Shown: one piece after another, positions 1 through 7,103 of the stretch
How positions within the stretch are numbered: the first letter of the stretch is position 1
Layout of the letters: the number at the start of each line of letters is the position of its first letter
Virus record (IMG/VR): IMGVR_UViG_2654587571_000012
Coordinates: 1 to 7,589 of that record
Reading direction: 5' to 3' (one strand)
DNA length: 7,589 nucleotides
From: a virus
Lineage: Duplodnaviria; Heunggongvirae; Uroviricota; Caudoviricetes
Translations under genes and position numbers: made by a program
The notes under the pieces: model-generated
What the model was told of the DNA's origin: nothing
The model's input: the letters and a program-made list of their open reading frames with translations, nothing else
Database searches by the model: none

Positions 1-165
1 AAAATGCCAGATAACATTCCGGCCTCCCCTGATTCAGGTTATAAATGACACAATATCTTGACAACATCCGTCACTGTCTGTCAGAAAATGTACTGCCATA
101 TAGAAGCAACATGTGAAGTACATCTATCCTTTTGAGCCAGCACCTCTCCACCGAAAGTCAGTGCT
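1..165 (+). repeat. Copy 1 of a ~165-bp structured element, cut at its 3' end by the IS
   Basis: 1..165 aligns by eye with 6779..6943. The first ~66 nt are identical, a central block is diverged with one indel, and the last ~27 nt (agcacctctccaccgaaagtcagtgct) are identical. It contains TTGACA (58..63) and the 5' arm of a hairpin (135..143). The matching 3' arm is interrupted after gtgct (165) by the IS end. Confidence 0.7.
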
Positions 166-190
166 TGTAGTGGTCAAGTAATATTGGCCA
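166..190. repeat. IS terminal inverted repeat (IRR, orfB-proximal)
   Basis: tgtagtggtcaagtaatattggcca is the imperfect reverse complement of 1399..1423. The orfB stop (174..176) lies inside it. Confidence 0.8.
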
Positions 191-920
191 CGGTTTTACA
201 GTAAAAATGGTATCTGTTCTCTGACTCTTCCGGCGTCAGCCCACCGTTATAATGGTGAGGTCTGACGCTGTTGTAGTAGTTCAATATGTAATCATTAATT
301 TGCTGCCGGGCCTCGTCCTTGCCTGCGTAACCATTCGTTGGCACCCATTCTGTTTTCAGACTGCGGAAGAAGCGTTCCATGGGGCTGTTATCCCAGCAGT
401 TTCCCCGCCGACTGACGCTTTGATTTATTCTGCAACGCCAGAGAAGTTGTTGATATTTAAGGCCTGTATACTGGCTTCCCTGGTCGCTATGGAACACGAC
501 ATCCCGGGGTTGGCCACGCGTCTCATAGGCCATCCGCAGGGCACTGCTTATCAGTGCGGTATCGGCATGCGCTGACAGACTCCAGCCGATAACCCTGCGG
601 GCAAAAAGATCCATAACAACCGCCAGATAGCACCAGCGATTTCCTGCCCAGAGATACGTAATATCTCCACACCATACCCGGTCTGGCTCCGGTACTGCGA
701 ACTGACGCTCAAGCAGATTCGGCAGGCTGGTATGCTCCTGACGGGCATTTTTATACTGATGTTTTCCGGGCTGACAACTGCTCAGGTTCAGATATTTCAT
801 CAGACGTCCGGCACGGTAACGGCTCATCGGGACGCCGTTTTGAGTCAGCATTTCAGCCAGAGTGCGCGCGCCCGCAGAGCCCCGACTTTGGTTCCACGCC
901 CGGCGTATTTCGCTGCACAA
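174..920 (-). CDS. IS3-family transposase OrfB (DDE integrase/catalytic domain)
   Basis: 248-aa ORF with the motifs [50 protein letters not shown] and NGGLTPEE, which I recognise as the IS3/IS911-type DDE transposase. The same frame stays open upstream to the slippery site near 1092, so the biological product is probably an OrfAB transframe fusion. The M at 920 in the ORF track is a TTG codon. Confidence 0.9.
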
Positions 921-1039
921 CCTGACTCGTGCCGGATTAACCGTATCGCGTCGTTTTCGCCAGTACCGGTAACTGCTGCGGTGTATTTCCAGAGCAGAAC
1001 ACAGGCTGACAACCGTGTGGCTGTCACTTAGTCTGGCGG

Positions 1040-1351
1040 CTATCGTGAACCGTTCAGCGAGTCGGACATTAAGAGCGCGGTAGCCTTTTTTAATATCGTA
1101 TTTTGTTCCTCCAGACGGCGAACTTGCTTTTCCAGCTCGCGGATACGTTGCTGGTCTGGAGTAATGGGTGTGGCAGAGGGCGTAATACCCTGGCGCTCTC
1201 GCCTGAGCTGGCGTACCCAGCTCTCAAGCGTGGTTGAACCGACATTCATCGCTTCACTGGCCTGTCGATATGAGTAGCCCTTATCAACAATCAGCTGTGC
1301 ACATTCCAGCCTGAACTCAGGGGTGAAGGTTCGTTTGGTTTTCTTGTTCAT
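1040..1351 (-). CDS. IS3-family transposase OrfA (HTH / leucine-zipper protein)
   Basis: ORF 1040..1387 with probable start at the ATG at 1351 ([13 protein letters not shown]...), preceded by AGGTG. The C-terminus ...[18 protein letters not shown] resembles IS911 OrfA as I recall it. The KK codons are the AAA AAG of the frameshift heptamer. Confidence 0.9.
1086..1092 (-). other. Programmed -1 ribosomal frameshift site (A_AAA_AAG) joining orfA to orfB
   Basis: The + strand TTTTTTA run at 1086..1092 reads A AAA AAG on the minus strand. A -1 slip changes the reading from the orfA frame to the orfB frame, which is open from here to 174. Confidence 0.6.
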
Positions 1352-1398
1352 TAAGTCACCTGTTTTGTGTTGTGGTGAGAATATCACCTTTCATCAGG

Positions 1399-1423
1399 TG
1401 GCCAAATTTAGTGTGCCACTACA
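1399..1423. repeat. IS terminal inverted repeat (IRL, orfA-proximal)
   Basis: tggccaaatttagtgtgccactaca ends in CA at 1423, immediately abutting terminase coding sequence. Confidence 0.8.
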
Positions 1424-2457
1424 TCCAGCCAGTCATAGACTATCTGTATCCAGGTGGTGAACGGACTGTACGCCGTCCAGATATGGAACGTGATGGAGCG
1501 CGGCGGCGGAATTTCATCCCCCCGGGCGCTGAAAAACATCAGGCCGTCACGGGTCCACATACCCGTGTTTTCACAGATCCAGCGCCCGTTACTCTGGTCA
1601 AGCTCAGACTGATGGATCACGCAGCCATGATGTTCACAGAGGTAGAAAACGCTTTCGGGGCTGTCCTTCTCCCATTTAAGGCCAAAAGGCGTGGATTCAT
1701 CGCCAAATTTCAGATACTGCGCCTCCCCACAGTGCGGGCAGGGCACATAGAAACGCATGAAATGCGCCGACTCGTTGGCCGCTTTTTCGATCTGGCAGGT
1801 ACCTTTGATTTTAGGCGTCGAGCCGCGAATGGATTTTGGCCATACAGAGCCCTCAATACGCTTATCCCCCAGCAGGGTTGGCGAGCCCTCTTTTTCGACA
1901 TCCGGCTCGAACGAGGAAAGCTCGTCATAGCAGACCACGTCCACGGATTTTTCACGGTAGTTTTTGGCGGCTGCACCGCCCAGGCACCAGAAACCGACGC
2001 CCGATGAAAAGCGTTTCAGCGTGAGAGTATTGTCACGATGTTTACGACCCAGCCATGGGGAAAGGTCTTTCAGGCATGGCACGTTCCGAATCGTCGCCTC
2101 CACGTGAGACTTCATAAAATCTTCAGCGGCAGAATCCGTGGGCTGAAAAAGCAGACTGTTTCGGGATTTATGCTCAATAAAATACCCGACCACCCCCAGC
2201 AACATCTTTGTATAGCCAACACGGGCAGATTTAATCAGGTTAACCGTGCGAACCTGGTCGTTACCCATACAGTTCATAATGGCGATCTGGAATGGCAGCG
2301 TTTTCCATTCTCCCTCACCATATGAAGATTCTTTAGGCAGATAATAATTTTGATCAGCCCATTCAACTGCCGTCATTGGTACAACCCTGACCAGAGGCTG
2401 CAGCGCAACCGAAACGGCAGCCATCATATTATTCAGTTGTTGCTCTGATATATTCAT
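1424..2457 (-). pseudogene. A: Terminase large subunit (lambda gpA-like), 3'-truncated by the IS
   Basis: ORF 1408..2514 with probable true start at the ATG at 2457 (MNISEQQ...). It matches lambda gpA from memory ([93 protein letters not shown]). Native sequence stops at about codon 345 of a protein that should be ~640 aa. The last residues and the stop of the ORF are supplied by the IS inverted repeat. Confidence 0.85.
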
Positions 2458-2938
2458 CGAGTAAATCCGGTAATTTATCCCCTGCCCGCGCACACTGATT
2501 TGCCCCCTTAGCAATAAGGGTTTTCAGATGGTCAAGATGGCGCGGTGTTAAATCAGGAAACTGTCGCTGCATGGATAAAGGGATGGAATCAAGCGTACTG
2601 GATAACGCCATTGCCAGCTTACTGAGGGCAAAAATACAGAACCCGGTGTCAATAAGTTTTCCTTTTGACACCTCATTTTTTAACTGCTGTGTAACAGCCT
2701 GTTCTGCTGTCAGTTCCCATCTGGCAATAAGCAATTTCTCCTCATAGTCGTCTTCGCTATCGCCATCAGGCACATCGTTTTTACTTCTCCTCAGATACGA
2801 TATGTAAAAATCGCGCCAGGCATCCAGATCCAGTTGCCCTCGCTTATTCGATATCGGGGCACCCGGCAATTTCTGCAATCTGCGAAGCTGGCGATCGGTC
2901 AGACTTAAATGCCTGGCAACTTCAGTCTGCGTAGCCAC
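2429..2938 (-). CDS. nu1: Terminase small subunit (Nu1-like)
   Basis: 169 aa with a GTG start at 2938 and GAGG upstream. The C-terminal half resembles lambda Nu1 (FCIFALSKLA..., LDSIPLSMQRQFPDL). The N-terminal DNA-binding region differs from lambda. It overlaps the terminase A start by about 29 nt, as in lambda. Confidence 0.75.
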   Translation of the reverse strand: MATQTEVARHLSLTDRQLRRLQKLPGAPISNKRGQLDLDAWRDFYISYLRRSKNDVPDGDSEDDYEEKLLIARWELTAEQAVTQQLKNEVSKGKLIDTGFCIFALSKLAMALSSTLDSIPLSMQRQFPDLTPRHLDHLKTLIAKGANQCARAGDKLPDLLDEYIRATTE

Positions 2939-6195: not shown

Positions 6196-6450
6196 CCATA
6201 AAATCCTGCCCTTCATGGCATACAGGATTTCAATGGAATCACAATGACCAACTCTTGCACAGCTGTATCCCTGACTCCCCGACAACTCAGATTTTCAGTA
6301 TCTGCTGCTATCTAAAGAGAAAGCGCACAAATGCAAGGGTCTTTCATCACGTCCTGTTATTGATTGCCTGTGACCTTTTCTTACCTCATGGAACGTTTTT
6401 TCAGTTAGAAATATTCATTTTACAACCAGTTCGTATTGTTTATTCATCGA

Positions 6451-6657
6451 CTACTCTCCCCGCGCCACCTTACGCTTATCTTCTTTAATCTTGAAATAAA
6501 GGTTAGTCAGATACGTCAGCAGGCCAAACAGCAGACTCCCCAGCACACCGATTGCCACCCACTGGGACGGAGAGACTTTGTCCAGCAGCTGCAGTAACCA
6601 GTATCCCGTCCCCACCGCTGACGTGGTGTATGACACACCCGTTGTGATTTTTTCCAT
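6451..6657 (-). CDS. S: Class II pinholin (phage 21 S-like)
   Basis: 68 aa, [68 protein letters not shown]. Two transmembrane segments and a charged C-terminal tail, closely matching S21 as I recall it. GGAGA lies 12 nt upstream of the ATG. Confidence 0.9.
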
Positions 6658-6700
6658 CTGATGTATGTCTCCGTCACCGCCGACAGAAAATGAAAGTAAA

Positions 6701-6737
6701 GAAAAACAAAAAAACCACCAGTGTCACCCACTGACGG
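6701..6737 (-). terminator. Minus-strand-specific intrinsic terminator just upstream of the holin gene
   Basis: In minus-strand RNA, CCGUCAGUG and CACUGGUGG pair as a 9-bp stem with two G-U wobbles around loop GGUGA, followed by UUUUUUUGUUUUUC. On the + strand the same positions are A:C and C:A mismatches, so the structure is strand-specific. Confidence 0.55.
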
Positions 6738-6778
6738 CCAACTCCGGGAGCCGTGATTATGGCATTCAGGCTCTGCTA

Positions 6779-6943
6779 AAAATGCCAGATAACATTCCGG
6801 CCTCCCCTGATTCAGGTTATAAATGACACAATATCTTGACAACACCCGTCACTGTCTGTCAGAAAATATACCGCCAGGCATAAGTATCATGTGAAATCCA
6901 ACTATCCTTCTGAGCCAGCACCTCTCCACCGAAAGTCAGTGCT
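6779..6943 (+). repeat. Copy 2 of the ~165-bp structured element (intact)
   Basis: Direct repeat of 1..165. It carries TTGACA at 6836..6841 and runs into the hairpin terminator at 6913..6956. Its 5' end (6784..6801) can also fold as a short hairpin in minus-strand RNA (GCCGGA/UCUGGC) followed by AUUUUU. Confidence 0.7.
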
Positions 6944-6956
6944 GGCTGTTTTTTTC
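6913..6956 (+). terminator. Plus-strand intrinsic terminator of sRNA-like unit B
   Basis: Perfect 9-bp stem AGCCAGCAC (6913..6921) and GTGCTGGCT (6939..6947) around a 17-nt loop, followed by G and TTTTTTT (6949..6955). The minus-strand reading has no U-tract after the stem. Confidence 0.65.
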
Positions 6957-7003
6957 CTTAATAAAGCATCTGTAACTGAAACAATCCGCATATTGATAAT
7001 ATA

Positions 7004-7103
7004 TTGACAGGCATCATTGCTGTCTGTGAAAAATAAGTCTCTACAAACATATAAGGCCTTTTAGCCAGCGTCTTCTTTCAGGTCAGTCGCTGGCTCTTTT
7101 TTT
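7004..7103 (+). ncRNA. sRNA-like unit C: diverged tandem paralogue of unit B with its own TTGACA motif and terminator
   Basis: TTGACA at 7004..7009, then ggcatcattgCTGTCTGTgAAAAAT (compare unit B's acacccgtcaCTGTCTGTcAGAAAAT). Terminator stem AGCCAGCG (7063..7070) and CGCTGGCT (7088..7095) around a 17-nt loop, then TTTTTTT (7097..7103). The -10 element is not canonical, so the promoter call is tentative. Confidence 0.45.

Follow-up and report, generated by a model that had tools for sequence, protein, structure and literature searches.

The stretch of DNA analysed here (the window; 7,589 nucleotides (nt), positions 1 to 7,589 of IMG/VR record IMGVR_UViG_2654587571_000012) is the late region of an Escherichia coli lambdoid prophage of the Shiga toxin 1 (Stx1) phage, H-19B and phage 434 type, with its late genes on the - strand. 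On the + strand lie three related units, A (1-165), B (6836-6955) and C (7004-7103), each of which combines a perfect TTGACA hexamer, a CTGTCTGT..AAA block and an AGCCAGC hairpin; a run of seven T residues (T7) ends units B and C, and the tail of unit A has been removed by an insertion sequence (IS). Positions 6836-7103 very probably hold two tandem, paralogous and self-contained small-RNA (sRNA) genes on the strand opposite the late operon, and the repeated cassettes are those of the already published Hfq-binding PasA/PasC family of E. coli prophages (Tree 2014, PMC4104026; Pearl Mizrahi 2021, PMC8550237; Zhu, Shabalina and Storz 2026, preprint, bioRxiv 10.64898/2026.05.13.724894). The parts of the three units are:

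1..165, + strand: unit A, a pasA allele of the type found in strain E2348/69, an enteropathogenic E. coli (EPEC) (identical to the pasA of E2348/69 prophage PP2 up to position 165; cassette match)
6836..6865, + strand: predicted promoter cassette of unit B (-35 TTGACA at 6836-6841, 18-nt spacer, TGt at 6857-6859, weak -10 CAGAAA at 6860-6865)
6871..6955, + strand: unit B RNA, an 85-nt PasA-family sRNA, variant allele (probe match, coordinate mapping, and identity to prophage Sp12 of the enterohaemorrhagic E. coli (EHEC) O157 strain Sakai)
6913..6955, + strand: Rho-independent terminator of unit B (fold, covariation, and an annotated terminator in phage 434 record OL657226)
6871..~7106, + strand: extent of the minor 236-nt PasA species (table S6 coordinates of PMC8550237 mapped by alignment; it passes the unit B terminator and ends at the unit C terminator)
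7004..7033, + strand: predicted promoter cassette of unit C (-35 TTGACA at 7004-7009, 18-nt spacer, TGt at 7025-7027, -10 GAAAAA at 7028-7033)
7039..7103, + strand: predicted unit C RNA of about 65 nt (sequence identity under the EcOnc52 peak of Sakai prophage Sp4; 5' end by prediction only)

The pattern TTGACA-N10-CTGTCTGT-NANAAA occurs exactly at 58-87, 6836-6865 and 7004-7033 on the + strand and nowhere else in the window, and 200 shuffles gave an expectation of 0 chance matches even when two mismatches were allowed. These matches bear out the original prediction of three related + strand units with a TTGACA hexamer and a conserved block, except that the block lies 10 nt, not about 11 nt, downstream of the hexamer. 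Positions 1-165 are a 92% copy of 6779-6943, and the global alignment of units B and C (score 40, against a shuffle mean of 7.7, standard deviation 3.3 and maximum 21; z = 9.7) indicates that these two are truly related as paralogues. Their similarity begins 8 nt upstream of TTGACA and takes in the block, a short ATAAGT, a CCTT.T.AGCCAGC run, the loop's 3' half, and the 3' arm together with T7. The cores that separate these elements are variable, as had been proposed, but they measure 38 nt in unit B (6868-6905) and 22 nt in unit C (7035-7056) instead of about 50 nt.

The unit B terminator consists of AGCCAGCAC (6913-6921), a 17-nt loop, GTGCTGGCT (6939-6947), a G and T7 (6949-6955), with a stem of 9 base pairs (bp), and that of unit C of AGCCAGCG (7063-7070), a 17-nt loop, CGCTGGCT (7088-7095) and T7 (7097-7103), with an 8-bp stem. 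The hairpin design with 17-nt loops and T7 was thus described correctly, with the end of unit B at 6955 and not at 6956, and the unit C terminator does end 1 nt before a convergent stop codon (7105-7107). Both positions are marked as + strand terminators in the curated phage 434 record, and the terminator typical of the family, a stem followed by U7, is present in units B (9 bp) and C (8 bp) and absent from unit A. Folding of unit C gave z = -3.7; whole-RNA folding of PasA was unremarkable (z = -0.8 and -1.3), the terminator alone being well structured.

A scan of IMG/VR with the cassette pattern returned at least 119 loci, with 39 distinct intact units among the matches listed, and most of the loci listed contain two cassette matches 168 nt apart, which is the arrangement of units B and C. 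Among these 39 units the outer six stem pairs are invariant, except for one variant each mismatched at pairs 1 and 5, whereas pair 7 is C-G in 34, U-A in 4 and U·G in 1, pair 8 is A-U in 17 and G-C in 22, and pair 9 is C-G in 17, U·G in 7 and U-A in 1, this last pair being unpaired in most unit C variants. When 13 hairpin types were aligned, 93.8% of the cells were paired, 4 of the 10 pairs changed on both sides, and the covariation score was 0.246 versus 0.142 in shuffles, with 0 of 500 shuffles reaching the observed value; in slid controls pairing collapsed to 22-54%. The stems therefore carry the compensatory changes by which the original prediction had proposed that it be checked. The same modular conservation is seen in the most divergent of the loci listed (L015), where identity to the window is 100% (32/32) and 94% (29/31) for the cassettes of units B and C, 98% and 92% for their terminators, 74% and 82% for their bodies, and 71% for the spacer between them, in agreement with the proposal of conserved ends around a divergent core.

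Stem pairs 7 and 9 include U·G, which on the late strand would read as a C·A mismatch; together with the T-runs, these wobble pairs identify the + strand as the functional one. This bears on a reading in which the blocks are leader elements of the late strand, protein-binding sites or lysis-gene promoters, the + strand features being incidental. A promoter scan does report CAGACA-17-TATATT at 7026-6998 on the - strand, and unit B can be read in a similar way (CAGACA-17-GATATT, 6830-6858, - strand), but promoter-like hits of this kind match at 9 of 12 positions and the window has 5 of them versus a shuffle mean of 10. In addition, the wobble pairs and T-runs fit the + strand only, the published probe and strand-specific data detect + strand RNA, and the Hfq peaks listed for Sakai include none on the late strand of this spacer, so we give the late-strand reading almost no credence.

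The identity of the units follows from published data on PasA (pathogenicity-associated sRNA A), which was found in E2348/69 prophage PP2 as a major species of 85 nt and a minor one of 236 nt, was validated by northern blot, and is lost or reduced in an hfq deletion (PMC8550237). The northern probe, GCCAGCACTGACTTTCGGTGGAGAG (PMC8550237, table S6), has its exact reverse complement at 6923-6947, and therefore the RNA detected is that of the + strand, opposite the late genes, as had been predicted. By alignment to the PP2 pasA locus, the published PasA 5' end (NC_011601 743499) corresponds to window position 6871 and the end of the 85-nt form to 6955. [quoted passage not shown] The published PasA seed, GCCAGCACCU (PMC8550237), is kept in unit A (136-145) and unit B (6914-6923), where it overlaps the 5' arm of the terminator. 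The units also lie between a SASA/sialate esterase gene and a class II holin gene, on the opposite strand (Pfam, PGAP), and esterase-holin synteny is reported for pas genes (bioRxiv 10.64898/2026.05.13.724894).

Unit B is the allele found in H-19B and under the Sakai Sp12 peak EcOnc51; it is identical to E2348/69 PasA at 74 of 85 positions, with all 11 differences in the first 40 nt. It is probably 'PasA-2', to which it was matched by published description; PasA and PasA-2 are reported to be about equally common and to differ in their first 40 nt (bioRxiv 10.64898/2026.05.13.724894). The commonest B-type sequences among the IMG/VR matches listed are the window's unit B (at least 32 copies) and E2348/69 PasA (at least 24 copies), numbers that fit these published frequencies. 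The exact probe match, the identity of unit A with E2348/69 pasA, and the presence of unit B and C sequences under peaks of Hfq CRAC (cross-linking and analysis of cDNAs) thus substantiate the proposal of a small-RNA gene family, although not the belief that it had no name, as it had been published as PasA/PasC. The family went unrecognised because Rfam 15 has no model for it; a search at permissive thresholds (E <= 1) found nothing for the units, and no AgvB, AsxR, Esr41 or STnc100, the only Rfam match in the window being isrC, inside the IS.

Less settled is how the RNAs begin. The 5' ends mapped for PasA and PasC (PMC8550237) fall 5 nt after the -10 hexamer, at window position 6871 for unit B, and each unit would have a sigma-70 promoter with a perfect -35 element, an 18-nt spacer, and a TG motif extending a weak -10 hexamer (3 of 6 consensus positions), and transcription would begin about 35 nt after TTGACA. 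By the same geometry unit C should start near 7039, giving an RNA of about 65 nt. Promoters are not discussed in either Pas paper (PMC8550237; bioRxiv 10.64898/2026.05.13.724894), and Zhu et al. suggest that the mature PasA 5' end may be cleaved from a longer transcript. The TTGACA/CTGTCTGT block could then be a transcribed leader or a cleavage signal, with the promoter upstream (TATAAA at 6818-6823, TATATT at 7000-7005), a reading to which the weak -10 hexamers, the likeness of units B and C for 8 nt upstream of TTGACA, and a chance-level scan hit just upstream of unit C (CTGAAA-18-TATATT, 6976-7005, + strand) lend some weight. We nevertheless regard processing as unlikely: a perfect TTGACA stands 35 nt upstream of the mapped 5' end in both pasA and pasC, with the TG one base before the -10 hexamer, this spacing is kept in the paralogue, and the upstream candidates have no credible -35 element. 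Moreover, the 236-nt species of table S6 (743499 to 743264) shares its 5' end with the 85-nt form and has a longer 3' end (PMC8550237), so the long form is not a 5' precursor.

With respect to unit C, its predicted RNA has a 24-nt single-stranded 5' part, an 8-bp stem, a 17-nt loop and U7, and because GCCAGCGUCU replaces the seed GCCAGCACCU where the PasA seed stands, unit C is a paralogue and not a PasA allele. In the published RIL-seq data, RNA2 fragments at E2348/69 743267-743294 fall on the unit C terminator, and the unit C region has 5 partners with an RNA2 fraction of 1. With moderate confidence we take unit C to be a gene of its own. A doubtful but serious alternative is that unit C is only a back-up terminator, the RNAs that end at 7103 being PasA read-through in the form of the 236-nt species. 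A species with the PasA 5' end was indeed reported to end there, the RIL-seq entry for unit C was merged with PasA by its authors (PMC8550237), the published northern blots had no unit C probe, and the Sakai unit C copies are identical, so that EcOnc52 in Sp4 could represent multi-mapped reads from two-unit loci. A mere back-up terminator, however, would not account well for a whole promoter cassette of pasA geometry, which is kept better than the flanking spacer (94% versus 71% in L015) and is free of mismatches in 178 units among the matches listed. The ratio of RIL-seq counts for the unit C end to those for PasA also shifts about 20-fold with growth condition (119/4983 versus 54/116), the Hfq-CRAC peak areas are near equal (EcOnc52 1.03M, EcOnc51 1.09M), and Sakai Sp4 keeps unit C without a pasA unit, an IS629 end lying nearby. 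The start of the EcOnc52 peak was considered as confirmation of the unit C start and rejected, because these peaks overshoot T-runs by 12-20 nt, the genome versions differ, and the identical copies cause reads to multi-map.

A tandem arrangement could also be the source of single-unit loci. The E2348/69 pasC gene has the upstream region, cassette and 5' body of pasA followed by a unit-C-type terminator, the switch falling in the shared CCTTTTAGCCAGC with loss of the intervening 168 bp, so that it looks like a fusion of the 5' half of pasA and a terminator of the unit C type; the loop of PasC recurs exactly in a unit C variant of one IMG/VR locus (L067). In a second single-unit type the PasA loop is retained and the unit joins the esterase gene at the T-run, with a compensatory U-A in place of C-G. 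From these junctions we infer that unequal recombination between tandem units explains both types. Zhu et al. conclude that PasA and PasC have a common ancestor, and they describe pasA copies as not being tandem duplicates (bioRxiv 10.64898/2026.05.13.724894); the tandem partner in the window is unit C, which their set of Pas genes does not include.

The third copy of the family, unit A, comprises an upstream region, a -35 TTGACA (58-63), the block (74-89) and an RNA-coding part (93-165) that ends at the following element:

166..1425, - strand: IS3-family IS, 1260 bp, with a two-open-reading-frame transposase (PGAP 'IS3 family transposase, programmed frameshift' in strain 602687; ends read from sequence)

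The IS, which starts with TGTAGTGG... at 166 and ends with ...CCACTACA at 1425, cuts unit A after GTGCT, inside the 3' arm of the terminator and 12 nt before the RNA 3' end. There remain 73 of 85 RNA positions, and unit A cannot make normal PasA because part of the 3' arm and the U-tract are gone. The flanks of the IS, the pasA terminator and a truncated terminase gpA gene, are unrelated and show no target duplication, and the IS/gpA junction is absent from the 5,426 complete E. coli genomes searched; these features suggest that the window arose when two IS copies, located in different prophages, recombined. The left IS junction was found in 1 of the 5,426 genomes, that of strain 602687, where the IS lies within an otherwise normal esterase-pasA-holin locus, and strain RM14723 carries an intact version of window positions 1426-7589. 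The same IS occupies the same pasA site in inverted orientation, with a 3-bp GCT duplication, in two IMG/VR loci (L031 and L034; L034:1530-2900) and in 24 E. coli genomes, mostly of serotype O145:H28 (e.g. NZ_CP028379.1 at 850684-850964). Since 'PasA-3' is described as identical to PasA but lacking a terminator (bioRxiv 10.64898/2026.05.13.724894), the IS-cut pasA alleles, compared with it by that description, may be PasA-3.

IS629 and another IS3-family element interrupt pas units at at least four further sites, and in Sakai Sp4 (L006:533-560) the unit C -35 element has an IS629 end 24 nt upstream of it, a distribution by which the pasA/unit C spacer appears to be a repeated IS target. Among loci L061, L093, L109 and L032, IS629 has its ends within a PasA-type stem, in the body of unit C and in the unit C T-run, and the second IS3-family element is also found in the body of unit C. 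As to the view of the pasA locus as a whole, in which it is a tandem paralogous pair, unit C makes its own RNA of about 65 nt with its own seed, crossing-over generates single-unit loci and the spacer is repeatedly targeted by IS elements, we lean slightly towards it. The isrC match is full length (150 bits; 1233-1355, - strand) and lies on the start of the IS transposase orfA, so the isrC family seems to describe part of an IS and not an sRNA specific to one locus.

Taken together, these data suggest a model in which the upstream gene is a variant allele of pasA, the downstream gene underlies the EHEC Hfq peak EcOnc52, and the third copy at 1-165 has had its terminator destroyed by an IS. Each RNA would have a single-stranded 5' part that varies, followed by a conserved Rho-independent terminator and its U7; the terminator would both end the RNA and supply the 3' binding site for Hfq. 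The RNAs would act in trans by Hfq-assisted base pairing with mRNAs, and because each unit would have its own promoter and terminator, they could be expressed from a silent prophage in the manner of a moron. Trans action of PasA in EPEC was shown by its Hfq-dependent accumulation and by RIL-seq (PMC8550237).

The position of the units also allows a role in cis, in which antisense or convergent transcription against the late strand (the 3' untranslated region of nanS-p, or a leaky holin-bound transcript) would lower the expression of the lysis genes or the esterase in lysogens. The units converge with nanS-p, lie just upstream of the holin gene and are fully complementary to any late-strand RNA crossing 6713-7104; given a late-strand terminator at 6739-6703, an esterase transcript would include the antisense region. 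A late-strand RIL-seq fragment (E2348/69 743494-743512) maps to window positions 6858-6876, and esterase mRNA is among the listed PasA partners (PMC8550237). The 3' end of the esterase gene in the window has CTGGTGCTGGA at 7128-7138 on the - strand, which matches the PasA RIL-seq target motif; this motif, CUGGUGCUGGA, was reported in the 3' end of the esterase mRNA from two E2348/69 esterase genes (PMC8550237, table S7) and is present in the window at the same - strand positions. The esterase site is, however, outside the overlap, so this contact is of the trans type, and of the 41 PasA partners the majority are core and virulence mRNAs from unlinked genes, which pair through a short seed. A main role in cis is thus distinctly unlikely, and action in trans is preferred.

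Several points weigh against the reading of 6836-7103 as two self-contained Pas genes. Expression as discrete, Hfq-dependent RNAs of about 80-85 nt has been demonstrated by northern blot and RNA-seq for the E2348/69 genes, the window locus being known from sequence alone, and unit A could not yield normal PasA. The promoter is a predicted one with a weak -10 hexamer (3/6), and a consensus promoter scan of the window did not call the cassettes, because these hexamers are weak; the PasA 5' end may instead come from cleavage of a longer transcript (bioRxiv 10.64898/2026.05.13.724894). The covariation reflects few independent events, as the sequences are close relatives, and no publication was found that establishes a biological function of PasA.

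The remaining features of the window are:

7105-7589, - strand: 3' part of a sialate O-acetylesterase gene (nanS-p/SASA family, DUF6645 C-terminal domain; Pfam DUF6645 E = 4e-19; PGAP names)
6703-6739, - strand: terminator-like hairpin and T-run on the late strand (terminator scan; terminator annotation in phage 434)
6451-6657, - strand: holin S, class II (phage 21 type; Pfam PF04971 E = 1.9e-32; annotations)
5230-5763, - strand: lysozyme (Pfam)
4427-4951, - strand: Rz (Pfam)
3647-3961, - strand: PerC-family transcriptional regulator (Pfam E = 3.8e-44)
2429-2938, - strand: Nu1 (Pfam)
1408-2514, - strand: terminase gpA, truncated N-terminal part (Pfam)

The esterase gene, whose stop codon is at 7105-7107, is convergent with units B and C, and on the late strand the lysis genes downstream of the sRNA spacer begin with holin S. 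The 6703-6739 hairpin is placed between the sRNA units and the holin start, and an esterase transcript that stopped there would be antisense to PasA and unit C over their full length. Several E. coli chromosomes contain the 453-bp esterase-holin spacer at 100% identity, and phages H-19B, 434 and YYZ-2008 and many Stx1a phages at 95-98.5%; it is nearly full length in 671 of the 5,426 complete genomes, and a genome with any match has it at a median of 5 places. Units B and C are themselves about 95-100% identical to their counterparts in phage H-19B, phage 434, Stx1 phages and the 671 E. coli genomes.

Elsewhere in the lysis region, an AT-rich insert of about 690 bp (5764-6450) separates the holin and lysozyme genes, a place where phage 434 has no gap; it contains a + strand open reading frame (5881-6195) that PGAP names as hypothetical protein WP_000138558.1 and that has no Pfam match. 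The 278-bp gap between the lysozyme and Rz genes (4952-5229) has a strong 15-bp hairpin with a T-rich tail on the late strand (5108-5140, - strand), near a + strand promoter-like site (5012-5041). The PerC-family gene sits between the lysis genes and the terminase, and its family includes the EPEC virulence regulator PerC.

The Pas family is already described both experimentally and comparatively, and the new points are limited to the tandem pair, the promoter model, the recombination origin of pasC and the IS hotspot. [quoted passage not shown] That the family could be recognised from raw sequence, while Rfam and annotation pipelines still miss it, illustrates the need for an Rfam model. The analysis adds a promoter model for all members, a second gene downstream of pasA, a route from pasA plus unit C to pasC, and a set of IS-inactivated copies, information that can be used in Rfam model building, functional copy counts across pathogenic strains, and knock-out design; a strain deleted for pasA but still carrying unit C may not be null.

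Among known systems, the Pas genes of E2348/69 come closest to the units. Unit A is the same as PP2 PasA base for base up to the IS, and lacks the last 12 nt and hence the terminator, whereas unit B has the same cassette, seed GCCAGCACCU, terminator, length and esterase-holin position. PasC, from E2348/69 prophage PP5, shares the upstream region and cassette of pasA, and its arms AGCCAGCG/CGCTGGCT abut the esterase stop as in unit C, but it differs in having one unit per locus instead of two, an 11-bp stem and an 8-nt loop.

In EHEC, EcOnc51 and EcOnc52 are orphan Hfq-binding (CRAC) peaks of Sakai Sp12 and Sp4 (PMC4104026, table S2), listed as PasA homologues in table S6 of PMC8550237. The EcOnc51 sequence is that of unit B and the EcOnc52 sequence that of unit C, both with predicted Rho-independent terminators; the Sp12 spacer contains units B and C in identical form with the EcOnc51 peak on B, and Sp4 has unit C only, with the EcOnc52 peak on it. 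They differ from the E2348/69 genes in being peaks alone, for which no northern blot, 5' end or function was reported (PMC4104026), and their edges overshoot the T-runs by 12-20 nt in current coordinates.

The AgvB/AsxR sRNAs (Rfam RF02702 and RF02703) are likewise Hfq-bound and come from lambdoid prophages of pathogenic E. coli, where their genes, like the pas units, occupy the moron region downstream of PR' and converge with the late operon; they too are conserved at the 3' end with variable 5' parts. Their site within that region is a different one, beside stx2 or Q-proximal morons, and there is no sequence or model match between the two groups. AgvB and AsxR also target core sRNAs, whereas in RIL-seq PasA and the unit C region each have 0 sRNA partners, and an AgvB-like anti-sRNA role was rejected on that ground. 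OmrA/OmrB and PrrF1/PrrF2 are adjacent paralogous sRNA genes with a common promoter and terminator design and divergent bodies. Such pairs resemble pasA plus unit C, and they are the ones that Zhu et al. cite as a contrast to pasA copies.

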